A stretch of DNA of 45,590 nt from Bacteriovoracaceae bacterium (GTDB taxonomy: Bacteria > Bdellovibrionota > UBA2428): NCBI GenBank assembly GCA_947467125.1, contig CANIGN010000001.1:1-45590 (forward strand), written 5' to 3'. The notes beneath the pieces are model-generated. The model was not told the DNA's origin, made no database searches, and saw nothing but the letters and a program-made list of their open reading frames with translations. Both the position numbers and the translations under genes were made by a program. Positions 6,892 to 16,367 of the stretch are shown here, one piece after another (within the stretch, counting starts at the first letter, position 1; each line of letters opens with the position of its first letter).

Positions 6892-8502
6892 GTGAGTTTG
6901 AATTCCCTCCTCAAATCAGTCCTTCCCGAATTACCCGCTGTGAGCATCGAACGAGAAATCGAAACCCTGCAGATGCTCCCTGCTGAAACCCTCTTCTTAT
7001 CCCTCAAAGAAGCCGATTCTGAGACCGCTCTTTGGGTTATGGAAAATGCTCGCGCGAGCCAAGTTCAAGGTGTACTTGATCTGGATTGCTGGCAAGGCGA
7101 TGCGTTTTTACCAGAAAGATTTTTTCGCTATTTTGAATTCATCACCTACACCACTCCCGAGCGACTTCTGGAATACATGAAGGATCTCGATCCCGAAATT
7201 ATTGTTTTATCCTTGATGGATGCAATCGAAGTCCTCGACTTTGATCCTCAGAATCCGCCTGAAGTGTCTGAATCACAATTACTGATTTCGCCCGGAAGCC
7301 AATATGCTTTGATCTTTAAAAAAGAAGATCCTGAACTTAAAGAACGAATTTTTCAGTGGCTAAACAAACTCTCCGCAATGGATTTCGACCTCATGAGAAG
7401 ACATCTTGAAAGTCTGAAGTGGGAACAAAAAAACGACCTCGAAGAATTCGCTTATCAAATTAAAAAAGGAAGAGTGGAAGAATTAGGCTTCGTCGAAAGA
7501 GAAGAAGCTCTCAAATTCTTTTCACAAATTCGCGCTCCTGAGCTCAAAACAAAAATGTTAAATGAGCCTCTCAAAAAACACGTTAAAGAAGAAACTCCTC
7601 TTGTCGAAATTTTGGGAAGCGAAGATTTCTTGCCCCAACCTATTTCAAAAGCCGTCAAAGACGACGGGTTTTTTCGTAAGGCTCTTGAGAAAATCGAAAA
7701 CACTCAACTCAAAGACATCTTACGAATGGAATTTGTTCGAACGATTAACGGAGTCTTTTCAGCGGAAGATATTCTCTCTCAAGACCTAAGCTTCTTGCGT
7801 GAATCTGCAAGCCGCACTCGCTCTTATCTTGACCTTGGCCTTCTTTATTTATCTGTTGGCAATATCGATCAAGCAGCCGAACATCTTTGTACTCAGCCTG
7901 TTTTCGAAATTGCTCGTTTGGGATGGTGCCTCTTGCAAGATCTCACACGCGCAAGCAAAGAAATTCGCTCAGAATACAACACGGCTATTTTTGAAAATGT
8001 AGATCGTCAACTTTTACAAGATTTAGAAGGACGTCACCCTGAGATTAAACATCCCGACGTGATCCGCGATCTAGAATTAAAAAATCCATCACTTATCTCG
8101 ATTGAAAACATTCACCGAATAGCTGACCATGTCGGCGCATTGAGTGTGTGTGCTCATTTCTTGAGAGAAACCCTCAGCGCTTCACTCAAACTAAACGACG
8201 AAGCTATGGAATCCAATGAATCGGCATGGACACGTCTTGCAACGGGAATCTTTAGACAAAGTTGCTCTCGTGAATTTAGCGTTGCTCTCCTCAGCAAAAA
8301 CGAATGGAATGAAACGAAAACTTCTTGGAACAAAGAAAGCTTTGATAAAATCTCAAATCTTATTTCTGAAAAAGTTCCTTCTGTTGGGAAGACTCTTTTC
8401 GTAAAACGTCTCCTCGAGAAGAAAAAAGAAATCCAAAAACTTATTGAAAGCGATACAATTCCCAATCCTCAATTTAGCCGTGCTCTGAGATGGGAAGTGT
8501 AG
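6892..8502 (+). CDS. hypothetical cytoplasmic protein (possibly DUF6178-like, with MgtE_N-like helical N-terminus)
   Basis: A 536-aa ORF starts at GTG and has no signal peptide. The N-terminal block LQMLPAETLFLSLKEADSETALWVMENARASQVQGVLDLDCWQGDAF resembles what I recall of DUF6178/MgtE-N type helical domains. This is recollection only. Confidence 0.55.
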   Translation: MSLNSLLKSVLPELPAVSIEREIETLQMLPAETLFLSLKEADSETALWVMENARASQVQGVLDLDCWQGDAFLPERFFRYFEFITYTTPERLLEYMKDLDPEIIVLSLMDAIEVLDFDPQNPPEVSESQLLISPGSQYALIFKKEDPELKERIFQWLNKLSAMDFDLMRRHLESLKWEQKNDLEEFAYQIKKGRVEELGFVEREEALKFFSQIRAPELKTKMLNEPLKKHVKEETPLVEILGSEDFLPQPISKAVKDDGFFRKALEKIENTQLKDILRMEFVRTINGVFSAEDILSQDLSFLRESASRTRSYLDLGLLYLSVGNIDQAAEHLCTQPVFEIARLGWCLLQDLTRASKEIRSEYNTAIFENVDRQLLQDLEGRHPEIKHPDVIRDLELKNPSLISIENIHRIADHVGALSVCAHFLRETLSASLKLNDEAMESNESAWTRLATGIFRQSCSREFSVALLSKNEWNETKTSWNKESFDKISNLISEKVPSVGKTLFVKRLLEKKKEIQKLIESDTIPNPQFSRALRWEV

Positions 8503-8876
8503 TGAAAAAAGCCTATCGAGTCTTATCGGGTATTTGGTTAGGGACGATTGTATTCTTTTCCCTCATTATTGCTCCTCAGATTTTTAAAGTCCTTCCACGT
8601 TTTGAAGCTGCAAAACTTCAAAACCATCTCTTTCCCTTTTATTATTCTGTAGGAATTATTTGCGGACTTGGAATGCTTCTTTACGCTTTTTTCAAAGATC
8701 AAAAGAAAATCATTTGGATCGGAGTGGCGTTAGCACTGGCTCTTATGGGCCTCACAACACTCACTCCGCTTATAAAAGATGCTTTCCTCTCGCAGAGCGC
8801 TTCTATCAAATGGCTTCACCCGACAGCGGTTGGACTCAACCTCGCCATGCTCTTTTGTGTTTTCAAGAGTATTTGA
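8490..8876 (+). CDS. small multi-pass membrane protein (DUF4149/TMEM205-like)
   Basis: A 128-aa ORF has about 4 hydrophobic segments, and WLGTIVFFSLIIAPQIFKVLP resembles the DUF4149 N-terminal motif. It overlaps the upstream gene by 13 nt, or by 1 nt if GTG 8502 is the start. Confidence 0.55.
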   Translation: MGSVVKKAYRVLSGIWLGTIVFFSLIIAPQIFKVLPRFEAAKLQNHLFPFYYSVGIICGLGMLLYAFFKDQKKIIWIGVALALALMGLTTLTPLIKDAFLSQSASIKWLHPTAVGLNLAMLFCVFKSI

Positions 8877-8929
8877 TCTTCCAATTTTCAAACTTAAGAT
8901 TAAGCTAATATCATTAGGGGTGGAAATTA

Positions 8930-10777
8930 ATGTACATCTTGGGTATTTCCAGTTTTTATCATGATAGCGCTGCAGCCCTTCTCTTAAATGGAGAAATTAT
9001 TGCAGCCGTTCAAGAAGAGCGCTTCACCCGAAAAAAACACGATAGCCGTTTTCCTGAAAACGCGATTCTTTATTGTCTCAAAGAAGCCAACATTAGCCTG
9101 TCCGATGTAAGTGCTGTTGTTTTTTATGATAAACCTTTTATTAAGTTTGAACGGCTTATAGAAACTTACCTTTCTTATGCTCCCTCAGGCATTTCTTCTT
9201 TTTTAAAAGCCATACCCGTATGGCTAAAAGATAAGCTCTACTTAAAAAAACTCATTAAAAAGGAACTTTCATCATTATCTCACTTAAAAGAAAGAGATCT
9301 TCCCAAAATTCTTTTTACTGAGCACCACCAGTCTCACGCTGCTTCTGCTTTTTACCCAAGCCCATTTAAGGAAGCGGTAGTACTCTGTTTAGATGGAGTC
9401 GGTGAATGGGCAACTTCTTCAGTCTGGCTTGGGAACAAAAATCAACTAAATCCTCTTTGGGAAATAAACTTCCCCCATTCCCTTGGAATGCTTTATTCCG
9501 CATTCACTTATTACACGGGATTTAAAGTAAACTCTGGGGAATATAAACTCATGGGTCTTGCTCCTTATGGCCAACCCTCATACGTAAATGAAATATTAGA
9601 CAATCTAATTGACCTTAAAGAAGACGGAACCTTTCGACTCAATATGAGTTATTTTAGCTTTGCGAACGGACTCACAATGACAAATGAAAAATTTGATCAA
9701 TTGTTTGGAGGCCCTCCCCGGAAGGCAGAGGGTACCCTCACGCAAAAAGACATGGACCTTGCGCGCTCTATTCAACATGTAACAGAAGAAGTCGTTCTTC
9801 GTCTTGGTCGCTCCATCCACAAAGAAACAAAGCAAGATTACTTATGTATGGCTGGTGGAGTTGCTTTAAATTGTGTCGCAAACGGAAGGCTTCTTCGCGA
9901 AGGTCCATTTAAAGAAATATGGGTTCAACCAGCTGCAGGTGATGCTGGAGGTGCCTTGGGAGCTGCCCTATCTGCCTGGTATCAATATTACAATAAAGAA
10001 CGAAATTTAAATTCCCATGATCTTGATTTCATGAAGGGGTCTTATCTGGGCCCATCTTTTGACACAAAAGACATTGAAGAATCTCTTCAAAAACAAAAAG
10101 CTCATTTCGAACACGTTGAAGATGAAAATATTTTCTTTGATAAAGTTGCTCAGGTTCTTGCAGATGGAAATGTTGTCGGATGGTTCCAGGGACGAATGGA
10201 ATTTGGCCCCCGAGCTCTTGGTGCAAGATCCATCATTGGTGATCCAAGAAACCAAAAAATGCAGTCGGTTATGAATCTTAAAATCAAATATCGAGAGTCG
10301 TTTCGTCCCTTTGCTCCTGCGCTTCTCGAAGAAGAAGTGAGTGAATACTTTGAATTCAATGCTCGAAGCCCCTACATGCTTATGGTGGCACCTGTAAAAG
10401 AGCGCCTTCGGATCAAAATGACCGAAGAACAAGAAAAACTTTTTGGAATCGAAAAGTTAAATATTCCTCGTTCCTCCATGCCTGCAATTACACATGTCGA
10501 TTATTCTGCAAGACTTCAGACAGTTAATAAAAAAACAAATTCGCGATTTTTCAAACTCTTAACTCATTTCAAAGCGATTACAGGCTGCCCTGTTCTTGTA
10601 AACACCTCATTCAATGTTCGCGGAGAACCCCTCGTGTGCTCAATTGAAGATGCCTATCGATGCTTCATGAGAACAGAAATGGATTATCTGATCATTGAGA
10701 ATTTTATATTAGCTAAAGGGACTCAGCCTAAATGGGAAGAGAGTTCAGATTGGAAATCAGAGTATGAGCTTGACTAG
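8930..10777 (+). CDS. carbamoyltransferase, NodU/CmcH family
   Basis: The N-terminus MYILGISSFYHDSAAALLLNGEIIAAVQEERFTRKKHDSRFP is typical of the family. Other family blocks are GLAPYG, CMAGGVALNCVANG, GRMEFGPRALGARSI and VNTSFNVRGEP. An SD-like ggggtgg lies upstream of the ATG. Confidence 0.9.
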   Translation: MYILGISSFYHDSAAALLLNGEIIAAVQEERFTRKKHDSRFPENAILYCLKEANISLSDVSAVVFYDKPFIKFERLIETYLSYAPSGISSFLKAIPVWLKDKLYLKKLIKKELSSLSHLKERDLPKILFTEHHQSHAASAFYPSPFKEAVVLCLDGVGEWATSSVWLGNKNQLNPLWEINFPHSLGMLYSAFTYYTGFKVNSGEYKLMGLAPYGQPSYVNEILDNLIDLKEDGTFRLNMSYFSFANGLTMTNEKFDQLFGGPPRKAEGTLTQKDMDLARSIQHVTEEVVLRLGRSIHKETKQDYLCMAGGVALNCVANGRLLREGPFKEIWVQPAAGDAGGALGAALSAWYQYYNKERNLNSHDLDFMKGSYLGPSFDTKDIEESLQKQKAHFEHVEDENIFFDKVAQVLADGNVVGWFQGRMEFGPRALGARSIIGDPRNQKMQSVMNLKIKYRESFRPFAPALLEEEVSEYFEFNARSPYMLMVAPVKERLRIKMTEEQEKLFGIEKLNIPRSSMPAITHVDYSARLQTVNKKTNSRFFKLLTHFKAITGCPVLVNTSFNVRGEPLVCSIEDAYRCFMRTEMDYLIIENFILAKGTQPKWEESSDWKSEYELD

Positions 10778-11186
10778 TTCTGTAGACCCAAAAAAACTAA
10801 GTCCTAAAGAGTTACAAAATTACGGATTCCTCATGGCAGGAATATTTTCTATTGTTTTTGGACTCATCTTTCCCCTTATGAAAAAACACAGTATTCCAAT
10901 GTGGCCCTGGATTTTGGCCCTTTGCTTTTTTCTACCTGCAGTTTTTTGGCCTCAGGGACTTTCTCCAGTCTATCGACTTTGGATGAAAGTGGGCGCTACC
11001 TTGGGTTTCATCAATACAACGATTATTCTTACTGTTGTTTTTTTTGTTATCTTCACTCCAGCAAGTTTTATTCTACGGCTTCTTGGAAAAGATCCTATGA
11101 AACGAAAATACGAACCTAAGAGCTCAAGTTATCGTGAAATAAAAACAGAAAACAATTCTGGATTAAAAATGGAGGAGCCTTACTAA
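10764..11186 (+). CDS. SxtJ-like membrane protein
   Basis: A 140-aa protein with 3-4 TM segments overlaps the carbamoyltransferase stop by 14 nt. The order carbamoyltransferase, then SxtJ-like, then a ~50-aa protein matches the SxtI/J/K-type cassette as I recall it. Confidence 0.55.
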   Translation: MSLTSSVDPKKLSPKELQNYGFLMAGIFSIVFGLIFPLMKKHSIPMWPWILALCFFLPAVFWPQGLSPVYRLWMKVGATLGFINTTIILTVVFFVIFTPASFILRLLGKDPMKRKYEPKSSSYREIKTENNSGLKMEEPY

Positions 11187-11338
11187 TGATTGATTTTTTT
11201 AAAGACCTATTTTCTTTCCTAAAAAAACGAAAGAAATTTTGGTTACTTCCCATCATCATCGTCCTTCTCTTGTTAGGAACGCTCCTCGTACTTAGCCAAG
11301 GGTCAGCGGTCGCCCCCTTTATTTATACAATTTTTTAA
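11186..11338 (+). CDS. DUF5989-like (SxtK-like) 50-aa single-pass membrane micro-protein; absent from the ORF track
   Basis: The ATG overlaps the upstream TAA (TAATG). It translates to MIDFFKDLFSFLKKRKKFWLLPIIIVLLLLGTLLVLSQGSAVAPFIYTIF. The pattern F(L/W)..RKK.W(L)LPII..LLLLG.L.VL.QGSA.APFIYT.F is what I recall for DUF5989. Confidence 0.6.
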   Translation: MIDFFKDLFSFLKKRKKFWLLPIIIVLLLLGTLLVLSQGSAVAPFIYTIF

Positions 11339-11346
11339 ATTTTAAA

Positions 11347-12438
11347 ATGTTAAAGGAAGGCATACTTTCTCTTTCAAATTCGATGCAGTTTTCGGGATCT
11401 ATTTCTGGATCTGCATCCACCTGTAGCGGAGAACTTGTCTTCACTACCGGAATGGTTGGATACAGCGAAGCTTTAACAGACCCGTCTTATTACGGACAAA
11501 TTCTTGTTTTCACTTTTCCTCTTATTGGCAATTATGGGGTTCCTCGTTTAAGAGAATCGAATTCAAAACTTCTCTCTCTTGGTTTTGAAAGCGAAAAAGT
11601 TAGAGTTGCGGGTGTCATTATAAGCGATCCTTCTCTCGAGGCCTTTCATTGGCGAAGTGAAAAACCGATCCTGAAGTGGCTTAATGAATCAAAGATTCCT
11701 GTTCTGACTGGTGTCGACACTCGTCACTTGGTGCAAATTATACGAAGTACTCCGGGTCTACTTGCCTCTATTAATCCTCAAAACAATTCTTATGATGATT
11801 TGAAAAAACCTAGAGCATTTTTTGATCCTTCCGCAGAAAATATATTGCCGAAAGTTTCTTCCACCCAAAGAAAAATATTGGGCCAGGGAAAGAAAAGAAT
11901 TGGATTGCTAGATTGCGGAGTCAAATGGAGCATCGTTCGACAACTCATCAATAACAATTGCGAGGTAGAAATTTTACCTTGGGATACAGATCTCACGAGT
12001 GTCGATTGTAATGCCTGGGTACTTAGCAATGGTCCTGGTGATCCAGATAAGACAGGCCCTCTCAAACAGAACGTTGCAGATCTTCTTAAGCAAAAAAGAC
12101 CCATTCTCGGTATATGCCTAGGACATCAAATACTTGCACTCGCAGCAGGGGCTCAAACGGAACGTTTACGATTTGGCCATCGAAGCCATAACCAACCCGT
12201 TGTCGATTTAAAAACTGGTAAAGGATATCTTACCAGCCAAAATCATGGTTATGTTGTTATAGAAAAGACTCTTTCGACAGAGTGGAAACCCTGGTTTAAA
12301 AATGCCAATGACTTTTCGATTGAAGGTATTATTCACGAATCAAATTCTTTTCGAAGTGTTCAATTTCATCCTGAAGCTGCAGGTGGTCCAAGAGATACAG
12401 GATGGATCATTGATGAATTTGTGAGGGACTTATTATAA
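11347..12438 (+). CDS. carA: carbamoyl-phosphate synthase small (glutaminase) subunit
   Basis: N-domain blocks are GEL VFTTGMVGYSEALTDPSYYGQILVFTFPLIGNYGV. The amidotransferase triad context is PILGICLGHQILA and QFHPEA. Confidence 0.92.
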   Translation: MLKEGILSLSNSMQFSGSISGSASTCSGELVFTTGMVGYSEALTDPSYYGQILVFTFPLIGNYGVPRLRESNSKLLSLGFESEKVRVAGVIISDPSLEAFHWRSEKPILKWLNESKIPVLTGVDTRHLVQIIRSTPGLLASINPQNNSYDDLKKPRAFFDPSAENILPKVSSTQRKILGQGKKRIGLLDCGVKWSIVRQLINNNCEVEILPWDTDLTSVDCNAWVLSNGPGDPDKTGPLKQNVADLLKQKRPILGICLGHQILALAAGAQTERLRFGHRSHNQPVVDLKTGKGYLTSQNHGYVVIEKTLSTEWKPWFKNANDFSIEGIIHESNSFRSVQFHPEAAGGPRDTGWIIDEFVRDLL

Positions 12439-12494
12439 ACTCATCAAAATTTCCTATTTTTTCTCATCTTAAACATCCTCCCAAAATTATTTTA

Positions 12495-15400
12495 TTGGGC
12501 TCAGGAGGTCTCTCTATAGGTCAAGCAGGTGAGTTTGACTATTCTGGGACTCAAGCAATCAAAGCATTTACAGAGGCCGGTATACACGTTGTACTCATCA
12601 ACCCTAACATCGCAACAGTTCAAACGAATCCCTCTCAAGGATTGACTGTCTATCTTTACCCCATTGAAACCGAATGGGTTGAACATATCATTAAGAAAGA
12701 AAAACCAGATGGAATTGTAGCAGGTTTTGGGGGGCAAACTGCTTTAAATTGTGTCCTCAAACTCCAAGAAGCTGGAATCCTAAAAAAGCACAATGTTCTA
12801 AATTTAGGAACTGATTTTAAAGGTTTACGTCTTGCGGAGAACAGAGAAGAGTTTTCCAAACATATTGAAAAACTTGGAATGCCTGTTTTACCTAGCCGTG
12901 CTGTTTCCAAAGTTGAAGATGCCGTTGATGCTGGAAAAGAGATTGGTTATCCGGTAATCATTCGCGCAGCCTACGCATTGGGTGGCTTGGGAAGCGGAAT
13001 TGCAAACAATCAATCTGAACTCAAAAACTTAGCAGAGTTAGCTTTTGTTCGATCAGATCAAATATTAATTGAAAAATCACTTTGGGGCTGGAAAGAACTC
13101 GAATACGAAGTCATGCGAGATCAATTCAATAATTCCATCGCAATTTGCAACATGGAAAACATTGATCCGCTAGGAATTCATACGGGAGACTCTATTGTCG
13201 TCGCTCCAAGCCAAACGCTTTCTGATGATGAATATCAAACATTAAGAAACGCAGCTCTTAAAATTGCAAGCTCCCTTGAAGTCATTGGTGAATGTAATGT
13301 TCAATTTGCTTTAAACCCAGTAAAGAATGAATTCTACGTTATCGAAGTAAACCCTCGGCTTTCACGTTCAAGCGCGCTCGCAAGTAAAGCAACAGGATAT
13401 CCTATTGCTTACATTGCGGCCCAAGTTATATTGGGTAACTCGCTCCTCAACATTACGAATCCAGTAACAGGAGTTACCTGCGCACTTTTTGAACCCTCAA
13501 TGGATTACATAGCCATTAAAGTTCCCCGATGGGATCTTCAAAAATTTCATAATGTATCCCACCAGCTTGGGTCAGCAATGAAATCAGTTGGTGAAGTTAT
13601 GGCTATTGGACGAAACCTAGGAGAAACTTTTCAAAAAGCCATAAGGATGGTTAACGAAAATGCAATGGGAATCACTCGACATCGTGTGGAAACCGATTCA
13701 TTTGAGGTCAACCTAAAAAACCCCACTGAAACCCGCATCTTTTCTGTAATAGACGCTTTTCGTTTTGGCTATAAAATCGATGAAATTTATGCCCACTCAT
13801 TTATCGACAAATGGTTTCTTTTTGAATTTCAAAAAATAGTTGAAGTTGAAAAAGAAATTCTAGGTTTTTTTAGAAAACTAAATTCTTTAGATTTTAAAAA
13901 AATAGAATCCGGAACTTGGAAAAGATGGAAAACACATGGTTTTTCTGATGTTCAGATTGCCGCTTACGCTCTTCAATACGATTTAACCAAAAGCAGTGGA
14001 AACAATCCGCCCATGTCGGAAATATACGCACTCTCCCTTAAAATACGTGAAGCAAGAATAAAATCAGGAATAAAACCTGTCGCCAAAAGAATTGATACCT
14101 CAGCGGGGGAATATCCAACCTCCTCTAATTATTTCTATCTAACTTACAATGGAGATTTCAACGACGAGATCTTAGGCTCATCAGAAAAAAAATCAGCGTT
14201 AGTTATTGGCTGTGGTCCTTATAGAATTGGAACAAGTGTTGAATTTGATTGGTGCGGTGTCGAGTCTTCCAAAACTATGGGTCAAATGGGATGGCGTAGA
14301 ACAGTTGTGAATTGTAATCCCGAAACTGTATCAACTGACTATAACTCTTCTGATATTTTATTTTTCGAAGAGATGAGTATCGAAAGACTTCTCGATATTT
14401 TAGACATTAATCAAACAGACGGTGTTATTGGATGCATGGGTGGACAAGCCCCAAACAGTTTAGCTTTAAAACTATCGGATGCAAAAATTCAAATGTTTGG
14501 ACATTCTGCTGAAAGTATTGAAAAAGCAGAAAACCGAAGTAAGTTTTCAAAGATTCTTGATGAATTAGAAATCGATCAACCTCAATGGTGTTCCGCAACA
14601 AGCCGTTTTGAAATTGATCAGTTTATAAAATCTGTTGGCTTTCCAGTTTTAGTACGTCCTAGTTACGTTTTATCAGGGGCAGCAATGAAAGTTGCATATG
14701 ATTTTGATTCTTTAAATCGATTTCTAGATGCTGCCACTGAAGTTTCTTCAAGTTGCCCAGTTGTGATTTCGGAATTCATGGTCGACGCAAAAGAAATTGA
14801 AATGGATGGCGTTTCCCAAAACGGAAAAATTATAAAATCATTTCTAAGTGAACATATAGAAAATGCGGGTATTCATTCTGGCGACGCGACATTGATTTAC
14901 CCAACTCAATCTTTATCTTCTACTCAAAAAACATCATTTAATACCATTGGAGAATCCATATCCAAAGCCTTGAATCTGAACGGTCCTTTTAATATTCAAT
15001 TTCTCTTACGCAACAACAAGCCAATGGTCATTGAATGTAACGCCAGAGCTTCCCGCTCCTTTCCTTTCATTTCGAAAGTCAGCGGAATAAATCTAGCCAA
15101 ATTAGCAACCCAAGTTATACTAGCACCCGAATCAATCGACCTTAATAAAAGCTCTCCTAAGAGAAATGAAATTGGAGTTAAATCAGCATTATTTAGTTTT
15201 TCAAGACTTAAAGGAGCAGACCCGATTAGTGGAGTCGAAATGGTCTCTACTGGTGAAGTTGCTTGTGTTGCAGAAAGTCTCGAAGAAGCGCTCCTACTGT
15301 CCTTACAGTCTTCATTTTTCAAAAAACCTCTCAAGGGAATTTTAGTTAGCTCAGGACGAGATATCGAAAAAGAAAAGTTCCTTAACTTAATGCCTTTTTT

Positions 15401-15734
15401 AGAAAAATTAGGTGTTAATGTTTATGCAACATCTGGAACGGCTGCACATCTATCTTCAAAGGGGCATAAAGTACATTTAGCAACATGGCCAAATGAATCA
15501 GGACTCAACAACGTCATCGATTTAATACAAAAAGGAAAAGTTGACCTTGTGATCAACGTTCCTAAAAATTATGAGTCCTCTGAAATTAACGCTGGCCTCG
15601 AAATTCGCCATGCAGCCATTCAAAATGGATGCACACTTCTGACAAACATGGAAAAAACCGTTGCCTTCCTTGAAGCTTTAGAGAAAACAGAAAAAGGCTT
15701 TAACCAACCAAAATCACTTTTACCCTTCAATTAA
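12495..15734 (+). CDS. carB: carbamoyl-phosphate synthase large subunit (true start probably upstream of the listed TTG, near 12456)
   Basis: GQAGEFDYSGTQA is present, with two ATP-grasp halves (EVNPRLSRSSALASKATGYPIA and ECNARASRSFPFISKVSG) and a C-terminal MGS-like domain. The conserved first strand KIILLG is encoded upstream of TTG 12495 in the same open frame. Confidence 0.95.
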   Translation: MGSGGLSIGQAGEFDYSGTQAIKAFTEAGIHVVLINPNIATVQTNPSQGLTVYLYPIETEWVEHIIKKEKPDGIVAGFGGQTALNCVLKLQEAGILKKHNVLNLGTDFKGLRLAENREEFSKHIEKLGMPVLPSRAVSKVEDAVDAGKEIGYPVIIRAAYALGGLGSGIANNQSELKNLAELAFVRSDQILIEKSLWGWKELEYEVMRDQFNNSIAICNMENIDPLGIHTGDSIVVAPSQTLSDDEYQTLRNAALKIASSLEVIGECNVQFALNPVKNEFYVIEVNPRLSRSSALASKATGYPIAYIAAQVILGNSLLNITNPVTGVTCALFEPSMDYIAIKVPRWDLQKFHNVSHQLGSAMKSVGEVMAIGRNLGETFQKAIRMVNENAMGITRHRVETDSFEVNLKNPTETRIFSVIDAFRFGYKIDEIYAHSFIDKWFLFEFQKIVEVEKEILGFFRKLNSLDFKKIESGTWKRWKTHGFSDVQIAAYALQYDLTKSSGNNPPMSEIYALSLKIREARIKSGIKPVAKRIDTSAGEYPTSSNYFYLTYNGDFNDEILGSSEKKSALVIGCGPYRIGTSVEFDWCGVESSKTMGQMGWRRTVVNCNPETVSTDYNSSDILFFEEMSIERLLDILDINQTDGVIGCMGGQAPNSLALKLSDAKIQMFGHSAESIEKAENRSKFSKILDELEIDQPQWCSATSRFEIDQFIKSVGFPVLVRPSYVLSGAAMKVAYDFDSLNRFLDAATEVSSSCPVVISEFMVDAKEIEMDGVSQNGKIIKSFLSEHIENAGIHSGDATLIYPTQSLSSTQKTSFNTIGESISKALNLNGPFNIQFLLRNNKPMVIECNARASRSFPFISKVSGINLAKLATQVILAPESIDLNKSSPKRNEIGVKSALFSFSRLKGADPISGVEMVSTGEVACVAESLEEALLLSLQSSFFKKPLKGILVSSGRDIEKEKFLNLMPFLEKLGVNVYATSGTAAHLSSKGHKVHLATWPNESGLNNVIDLIQKGKVDLVINVPKNYESSEINAGLEIRHAAIQNGCTLLTNMEKTVAFLEALEKTEKGFNQPKSLLPFN

Positions 15735-15761
15735 ATTAATTTTTTTATATTTCGTGTTTGA

Positions 15762-16367
15762 TTAATCCTGAAAAAATCCATTCGGAACATATTTTTCTAG
15801 TTCTCGACTCGGCAAAAACAAAAGAGGATCCAAAGGATCTGATCCCTTACGGATCTCAAAGTGCAAGTGGTTTGCTTGAGCTCGACCGGTTCGTCCCATT
15901 AACCCCAAAACCTCTCCTGCCTTCAGCTCCTGGCCCCGTTTAACTTTGTACTTTGATAAATGAGCATAGAGCGAAGACCAGCCCCCTCCATGATATACCA
16001 CGACAGTTTTTCCGTAGCCTTTTACAAAAGCGACATCGACCACTTTTCCGTCACAAGACGTGTGAATCTTATCTCCATGACGGCCCCCGAGATCGAGACC
16101 CTCATGCATGCGTTCACCTTTTTTTCGCTCGCCTTTTTTTCTCCATCCAAAAAAACTAGCCACACGAGGTTTACCCTCTACAGGCCAAACAAAGGAAAGA
16201 GTTTGAGTTGGAACACCGTCTTTTTTGTCTTTTGAACTTTCAGCAAGAATACTTTCATCTAAAGACTCACGCGAACGAGTGGCTTCGCTTTGACTCAAAC
16301 TCGTTGTGCATGAAAACATAAAAAACATGCACACGATCGCAAATGTTTGAGACAAAATTTTATTCAC
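15762..16367 (-). CDS. M23 family metallopeptidase lipoprotein
   Basis: The signal and lipobox read MNKILSQTFAIVCMFFMFSC. LytM motifs are HEGLDLGG, GYGKTVVVYHGGGWSSLYAHL and GRTGRAQANHLHFE. Confidence 0.85.
   Translation of the reverse strand: MNKILSQTFAIVCMFFMFSCTTSLSQSEATRSRESLDESILAESSKDKKDGVPTQTLSFVWPVEGKPRVASFFGWRKKGERKKGERMHEGLDLGGRHGDKIHTSCDGKVVDVAFVKGYGKTVVVYHGGGWSSLYAHLSKYKVKRGQELKAGEVLGLMGRTGRAQANHLHFEIRKGSDPLDPLLFLPSRELEKYVPNGFFQD

Follow-up and report, generated by a model that had tools for sequence, protein, structure and literature searches.

An extra carbamoyl-phosphate synthase joined to a carbamoyltransferase-SxtJ-DUF5989 module in a Bacteriovoracaceae genome

Why would a bacterium keep the genes of a second carbamoyl-phosphate synthase (CPS) directly behind a carbamoyltransferase (CT) and two small membrane proteins? 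The question is raised by a metagenome-assembled genome of a Bacteriovoracaceae bacterium (G000; 1.17 Mb in 89 contigs, 66% complete), a freshwater predatory-type organism, of which we analyzed one stretch of 45,590 nt, here called the window. Within it, five co-directional open reading frames (ORFs) on the plus strand encode a CT, an SxtJ-family protein and a DUF5989 microprotein (together, the trio), followed by the CPS subunits CarA and CarB. We lean towards the view that the extra CPS, expressed together with the trio, provides carbamoyl phosphate specifically for a carbamoyl-transfer module directed to the membrane. Its parts are as follows.

8878-15763, plus strand: whole accessory block, about 6.9 kb, delimited by blastn collinearity of congeners on either side
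8930-10777, plus strand: CT, a NodU/CmcH/TobZ-type carbamoyltransferase of 615 aa (PF02543 + PF16861)
10764-11186, plus strand: SxtJ-family membrane protein of 140 aa (PF19588), overlapping the CT stop by 14 nt
11186-11338, plus strand: DUF5989 microprotein of 50 aa (PF19451), its start overlapping the SxtJ stop (TAATG)
11347-12438, plus strand: carA, CPS glutamine amidotransferase subunit (extra copy), 363 aa (TIGR01368)
12439-12494, plus strand: carA-carB junction, in the carB frame; holds the first strand KIILLGSGG and has no ATG, GTG or TTG
12495-15734, plus strand: carB, CPS large subunit (extra copy), 1079 aa as the minimal ORF from TTG (TIGR01369)

The genes are tightly packed. CT and SxtJ overlap by 14 nt and SxtJ and DUF5989 by 1 nt, and gaps of 8 nt and 56 nt separate DUF5989 from carA and carA from carB. 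A first-pass annotation had described five packed co-directional genes, and the ORF coordinates and spacings confirm this exactly. The gene identities that it proposed also stand, including the SxtJ and DUF5989 assignments for which it had asked for profile support: in searches with Pfam and NCBIfam profiles, all scores exceeded the curated cut-offs. SxtJ scored 58 bits (gathering threshold 24.4), DUF5989 90.9 bits (threshold 27; profile positions 2-49 of 49), CarA 372 bits (cut-off 307) and CarB 1315 bits (cut-off 1027), the CarB alignment starting at model position 12.

The same annotation took the block carAB to be the only enzyme that makes the CT's substrate. This proved wrong, because the genome holds two full carB loci, the other lying on a separate contig (C23) in the order pyrB-carA-213-aa ORF-carB-greA-recG, which is a housekeeping pyrimidine context. 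The two copies are only distantly related (CarA and CarB each 36% identical). Alignment with the C23 copy locates the triad motifs in the block CarA (the Cys of GICLGHQ and the His/Glu of FHPE). The 213-aa ORF between the housekeeping genes (L006, C23, 2074-2715) overlaps both and has no NCBIfam match; a 224-aa ORF occupies the same position before carB in family f20 (L197 5268-5942).

Contamination was considered as the source of the second carAB and rejected, since the C23 type is present in all 19 other family genomes searched and one of these, from the same genus, carries both types. The window type was found only in G000 and in this congener (G003; 93-99% protein identity), where a 2.1-kb contig shows SxtJ-DUF5989-carA-carB. 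We built a tree of 67 CarB sequences (LG+G4, SH-aLRT), in which the C23 copy joins the phylum's vertical CarB (families f1, f4, f5, f7, f9, f10, f12, f20, f22). The window copy falls in the other major clade, inside a 17-row subclade with 100% support and on a long terminal branch (0.77 vs a median of 0.17). By these comparisons the block carAB is an additional paralog that belongs to another CPS lineage. The only closer relatives of its CarA, at 92% and 75% identity, both sit inside the same block; identity then drops to a plateau of 55-61% with ordinary bacterial CarA. The nearest CarAB outside the genus are thus ordinary carAB pairs, some in Oligoflexus- and Pseudobacteriovorax-named records. 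Block CarB also resembles human CPS1 more than E. coli CarB (1010 vs 731 bits), a preference that is especially strong in its allosteric (MGS-like) domain at 15180-15731 (99 vs 43 bits).

The carA-carB junction deserves separate mention. The carB frame is open upstream to 12417, its only canonical start (TTG 12495) lies inside KIILLG, and no canonical start precedes the first conserved CarB strand. Because that strand comes before the TTG, the gap is probably shorter than 56 nt, in agreement with the "56 nt or less" of the earlier annotation; ATT 12456 is the likeliest start. The stretch 12439-12494 is 100% identical in the window, in metagenome contig L113 and in G003 although CarA differs by 8%, which suggests either coding from a non-canonical start (ATT 12456) or a coupling element.

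The block is not present in all congeners. By blastn, the window runs collinear with two of them, G002 (10 contigs, 93% complete) and G001, as far as 8877 and then from 15763/15764 onwards, at about 80% nucleotide identity. Both congeners lack exactly 8878-15763, that is, the five genes with a 53-nt leader and a 27-nt trailer, which leaves 15 nt between the two flanking genes in G002. The flanking genes are:

8490-8876, plus strand: DUF4149 membrane protein, left flank; conserved in congeners with or without the block
15762-16367, minus strand: M23 peptidase, right flank, convergent with carB (27-nt gap); conserved in congeners with or without the block

The five genes are therefore a single insertion/deletion unit. 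Besides G000 and G003, the carriers are metagenome contigs L113/L114, with the same arrangement and CarA 91-92% identical, and a 49-kb contig (P0002) with CarA 75% identical. The latter reads DUF6178-DUF4149-CT-SxtJ-DUF5989-carA-carB-M23-SurE-RNase R: the same site and order, with a 14-nt overlap, a 1-nt overlap and a 9-nt gap. Two further lineages, at 92% and 75% CarA identity, thus retain the spacing of the junctions (14-nt overlap, 1-nt overlap, 8-9-nt gap). In G004 and G006, which are more distant congeners, the space between DUF4149 and M23 is taken up by five unrelated ORFs, one of them NlpC/P60-like (L111 4935-11610, L112), so the site is a variable spot in the genus. Neither direct or inverted repeats at the block ends nor an integrase or transposase were found, and in GC and GC3 the block stays inside the genome's range, giving no compositional sign of recent transfer. 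A donor search returned no lineage outside the genus with the same five-gene order. In the left flank, the DUF6178 protein (6892-8502 vs G002 C8 75715-77319) is 98% identical, with DNA only about 82% identical over the gene; on this comparison the protein is under very strong purifying selection.

Outside the genus, the trio itself is common. Ranked by CT similarity, the top 80 genome loci (57-71% identity) span Cyanobacteria, Gammaproteobacteria, Nitrospira, Rickettsiaceae, Pelagibacteraceae, Gemmatimonadota, Ignavibacteria and others. Of these loci, 75 have SxtJ and 67 have DUF5989, and 139 of the phylum's 401 genomes encode DUF5989, in line with the earlier statement that the trio is widespread outside saxitoxin producers. 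Its linkage to CPS fares differently. The first-pass annotation had made conservation of this linkage in relatives a test of the idea, and most relatives do not have it: no true carA or carB was found among the 80 cross-phylum loci. Within the phylum, CPS genes adjoin the trio in 3 of 69 trio loci from other genera, inspected with flanks of up to ±10 kb, and a fourth has carA 9 kb away, so that about 65 of the 69 have no CPS nearby. Two of the three adjoining cases belong to family f20 (G337, G256; carB, a 277-nt gap, then SxtJ-DUF5989-CT). The third belongs to family f9 (G269), where carB-carA diverge from SxtJ-DUF5989-CT across 175 nt.

A search from the carAB side gave a matching picture. 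Among 78 metagenome loci with CarA 43-59% identical, scored for a trio within 6 kb, three had one: L122 (SxtJ-DUF5989-CT-SGNH, 460 nt, carA-carB), L133, which is essentially the G269 locus, and L155 (UDP-GlcNAc 2-epimerase-carA-carB-CT-DUF5989-GDSL). In total, trio-CPS linkage is seen in five lineages, this genus and four others, with five gene orders. A rough Poisson estimate of chance proximity expects 0.05-0.12 events per sample (P about 1e-3 to 1e-4), a figure that is indicative only, as relatives are not independent. Judged from these gene neighborhoods, the linkage is not part of the module in general, but it is recurrent and above chance.

The f9 genome (G269, 100% complete) offers a second case of an extra copy. 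It encodes two CPS, one a fused carA-carB ORF of about 1495 aa beside pyrB, the other a trio-linked carB-carA pair of the window type. A single origin of the two trio-linked extra CPS is neither shown nor rejected (monophyly, AU test, p = 0.36). As an observation in its own right, CarA-like and CarB-like sequences share one stop-free frame of about 1475-1495 codons beside pyrB in two members of this family (L254 = G269 C9; L258 = G027 C1), and the reading frames indicate that the pyrB-side CPS of family f9 is a fused single polypeptide in a bacterium.

Signals for joint transcription were sought in and around the block. One line belongs in the feature list here:

8885-8914, plus strand: candidate sigma-70-like hexamers TTCAAA-16 nt-TATCAT (9/12 match), in the 53-nt block-specific leader 5' of CT

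This is the sole sensibly placed promoter-like site and only a candidate; promoter- and terminator-like sites occur at background level in the scans (14 vs 16.7 and 7 vs 6.9 in shuffled sequence). A Shine-Dalgarno-like run, GGGGTGG, lies directly before the CT ATG. No terminator-like site was detected between 10777 and 12495, where the 8-nt DUF5989-carA gap leaves no room for one, and an Rfam search of the whole window matched no RNA family.

The CT has the two-domain architecture of its family, with Carbam_trans_N (393 bits, residues 3-347) forming a Kae1/ASKHA-like N-domain and Carbam_trans_C (247 bits, residues 407-596) a YrdC-like C-domain. It is a family member but not NodU itself, because it scores 150 bits against the NodU equivalog NF041651, whose cut-off is 1000. 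Alignments with solved relatives are full-length (NovN 315 bits, GdmN 298, TobZ 239). The metal site (HxxxH, H132/H136; D155; D338) is invariant in nine CTs, with the same residues aligned in NovN, and the YrdC-like motifs GWxxGRxEFGPRALG, RESFRPFAP, THVD and NTSFN are retained. Hydropathy analysis found zero hydrophobic segments. TobZ forms carbamoyl-AMP from carbamoyl phosphate and ATP and then transfers the carbamoyl group. By analogy, the CT should work in the same way, via carbamoyl-AMP and dependent on ATP and carbamoyl phosphate.

The nearest relatives of the CT (68-71% identity) are in the Bdellovibrionaceae lineage UBA2466, family f4 (L030), which has the trio with no CPS nearby and whose carB belongs to the vertical clade of the phylum. 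CT and CarAB thus have different nearest relatives, and the block looks assembled from two sources. The gene that follows the trio in UBA2466/f4 encodes a 414-aa protein carrying a penicillin-binding transpeptidase domain (L030 12467-13711; L020 9274-10518; L022 5465-6712; L019 15240-16484), which may hint at a peptidoglycan-related acceptor in that lineage.

The two membrane partners are small. SxtJ has three hydrophobic helices by hydropathy; its AlphaFold2 model (mean pLDDT 85) consists of three long helices and found no fold match in the PDB with E below 1. DUF5989 has a basic N-terminus (KKRKK), one transmembrane helix (18-36) and a 14-residue tail ending in APFIYTIF, so that Tyr47 sits in a C-terminal FxYxxF motif (FIYTIF). 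Across the 140 DUF5989 homologs in the fetched loci, this motif is the very C-terminus in 136, Tyr(-4) and Phe(-1) are invariant (140/140) and Pro(-7) is present in 138. FxYxxF is known as the "acyl-shuttle" motif of the microprotein DltX, and bacterial MBOATs also end in it, for instance PatA with FIYANF; in these systems the motif Tyr carries the acyl group and brings it to an SGNH transferase on the outer side of the membrane (PMC12148441). Like DltX, DUF5989 is a single-pass microprotein with a C-terminal FxYxxF and an invariant Tyr. It is better said to "work like" DltX than to be a member, because it matched no DltX-family Pfam profile up to E = 10, the block contains no MBOAT gene (SxtJ does not belong to that family), and searches of G000 (66% complete) and G003 (92% complete) with six plus one query proteins turned up no SGNH partner. 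By analogy, the conserved tail points to transfer towards an envelope acceptor. A literature search found no paper using the term DUF5989.

These parts can be arranged into a working scheme. The five genes would be transcribed together as an operon-like unit, and the extra CPS would make carbamoyl phosphate when and where the block is expressed, feeding the CT. The CT, with ATP, would convert carbamoyl phosphate to carbamoyl-AMP. At the membrane, Tyr47 of DUF5989, partnered by SxtJ, would probably pass the carbamoyl group on to a final acceptor that may be envelope-associated. A private CPS could keep the module supplied when the pyrimidine-regulated housekeeping CPS is shut down; a cell that has no arginine pathway would have little carbamoyl phosphate when pyrimidines are plentiful. 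This rationale fits the absence of ornithine carbamoyltransferase (OTC; TIGR00658), which was not found above cut-off in five genomes of the genus (G000, G001, G002, G003, G006) or in G269, where the matches were pyrB genes only. As a control, the same search matched 14 of 14 named genomes, 13 of them above cut-off. With no OTC in either lineage that has an extra copy, the known consumers of carbamoyl phosphate there are PyrB and the CT. Family f20 genomes do have OTC.

A more specific version of the last steps is tentative and, in our judgment, rather doubtful. In it, the block would be a self-contained donor-to-surface pathway, a carbamoyl counterpart of the Dlt/Pat shuttles, in which CT and SxtJ carbamoylate Tyr47 and the resulting O-carbamoyl-tyrosine passes its group to an envelope polymer outside.

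Several observations weigh against a dedicated supply for such a module, in addition to the scarcity of the linkage across phyla and within this one. Two trio-bearing genomes (G022, G040) have a single, unlinked CPS and no OTC; since they manage in this way, and since most trio loci are not near a CPS, the module can do without a private supply. Family f20 cells have just one carB, and it is the trio-linked one. The nearest relatives of the CT and of carAB differ, with no donor of the whole block. The SxtL-like GDSL/SGNH gene is absent beside the trio in this block and from the rest of G000 and G003 as far as our queries reached. Topology is awkward as well: the CT is cytoplasmic, the motif Tyr is predicted to be outside, and SxtJ is neither an MBOAT nor structurally related to a known protein. 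Carbamoyl-serine enzyme intermediates, moreover, are usually slow to turn over. What rescues the functional link, on the comparisons made here, is the unity of the indel, the retention of the arrangement down to 75% CarA identity, the recurrence of the linkage and the extra copy in G269.

The strongest rival, which we regard as possible though unlikely, is that the adjacency is incidental. The carAB pair would then be a horizontally acquired xenolog serving pyrimidine synthesis, as a back-up or as a replacement in progress, that shares an insertion hotspot with the trio. The variability of the DUF4149-M23 site, with its five other ORFs in G004 and G006, is what a hotspot would look like; the separate ancestries of the two halves, the many unlinked trio loci and the trio genomes that work with an unlinked CPS are also on its side. 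It accounts less well for parts only 8 nt apart whose geometry has been kept to 75% CarA identity, and for the joint gain or loss of trio and carAB in the genus. Linkage in four other lineages, in different orders and well above the rough chance expectation, also speaks against it, as does the independent pairing of an extra window-type CPS with a trio in G269.

The wider neighborhood of the trio bears on the acceptor. When we clustered the neighbors at 88 loci (the 80 cross-phylum loci and eight from the phylum), the commonest fourth gene was a membrane-anchored SGNH/AlgX-like protein, in at least 27. Glycosyltransferases, an RfbB-like dehydratase and AsnB-like amidotransferases formed a minority, and sugar-nucleotide enzymes recurred. 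An SGNH/GDSL gene is also present at the CPS-linked loci L122, G269/L133 and L155. An envelope-linked acceptor, as the first-pass annotation had suggested, fits these neighbors and the FxYxxF tail by analogy.

An alternative is that the block tailors a small secreted metabolite, with SxtJ and DUF5989 serving in export or as a scaffold. The precedent is SxtI, for which joint action with SxtJ and SxtK has been proposed and whose gene neighbors those for making a soluble alkaloid (PMC2679770, PMC2885083), and the block, too, is free of glycan genes. We nevertheless find this improbable: no other biosynthetic genes accompany the block, the CT clade (57-71% identity) spans many phyla with SGNH/AlgX-like, glycosyltransferase and sugar-nucleotide neighbors, and FxYxxF is known from envelope-polymer acylation. 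That the extra carAB serves arginine or another carbamoyl-phosphate-consuming pathway instead of the CT is very improbable: bacteria with two CPS usually divide them between arginine and pyrimidines and the window CarB departs from the E. coli type in its allosteric domain, but no OTC was found in the genus or in G269, which makes an arginine-specific role unlikely, and there are no arg genes in the block or its flanks.

The locus matters for several reasons. SxtJ- and SxtK-like proteins have been listed as "unknown" since the saxitoxin cluster was described, and one genome in three of this phylum carries the trio, as do members of many other phyla. The block would be a compact natural minimal system, with synthesis of the donor, its activation and two small membrane components combined in 6.9 kb. 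It would also illustrate a rarely documented way to supply a labile metabolite, by attaching a whole second CPS to a consumer that belongs to neither the arginine nor the pyrimidine pathway, in organisms that no longer make arginine; the one paper found that treats O-carbamoyltransferase together with CPS and gene clusters contains no account of a CPS linked to a CT (PMC6022934). If the shuttle reading is true, it would give a function to the uncharacterized SxtJ and SxtK families and reveal a CPS paralog lineage specialized for envelope carbamoylation.

Among known systems, TobZ, NovN and GdmN share the two-domain architecture and catalytic motifs of the block CT. They tailor antibiotics and, unlike the block CT, have neither SxtJ/DUF5989 partners nor a linked CPS.

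The closest match in parts and adjacency is sxtI-sxtJ-sxtK(-sxtL) of the cyanobacterial saxitoxin clusters, in which an O-carbamoyltransferase, an SxtJ-family protein and an ORF of about 50 aa stand together. In these clusters sxtI, J, K and L are adjacent, with J and K uncharacterized (PMC2679770, PMC2885083). DUF5989 is likened to SxtK by size and position only. The parallel extends to SxtL in many relatives, where a GDSL/SGNH gene follows the trio, but not in this genome. Here, in contrast to the saxitoxin clusters, no other sxt genes are present, carAB is attached, and the module is widespread in non-toxic bacteria.

The Dlt (DltA/C-DltB-DltX-DltD) and PatA/PatB systems share the FxYxxF-Tyr tail with the block, and DltX is a single-pass microprotein like DUF5989. 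As in Dlt, there is a cytoplasmic adenylate-forming activating enzyme and, in many relatives of the trio, an SGNH/AlgX-like partner. The likeness is functional only: the block has no MBOAT but a three-helix SxtJ that lacks a fold match, and the group is carbamoyl, not acyl.

Bacillus subtilis, finally, has separate arginine- and pyrimidine-specific CPS. The source genome likewise holds two carAB sets, one in a pyrimidine operon and the other beside a different consumer. Here, however, OTC was not found, the second consumer is a NodU-type CT module, and the extra copy comes from another CPS clade and is carried on an accessory indel.

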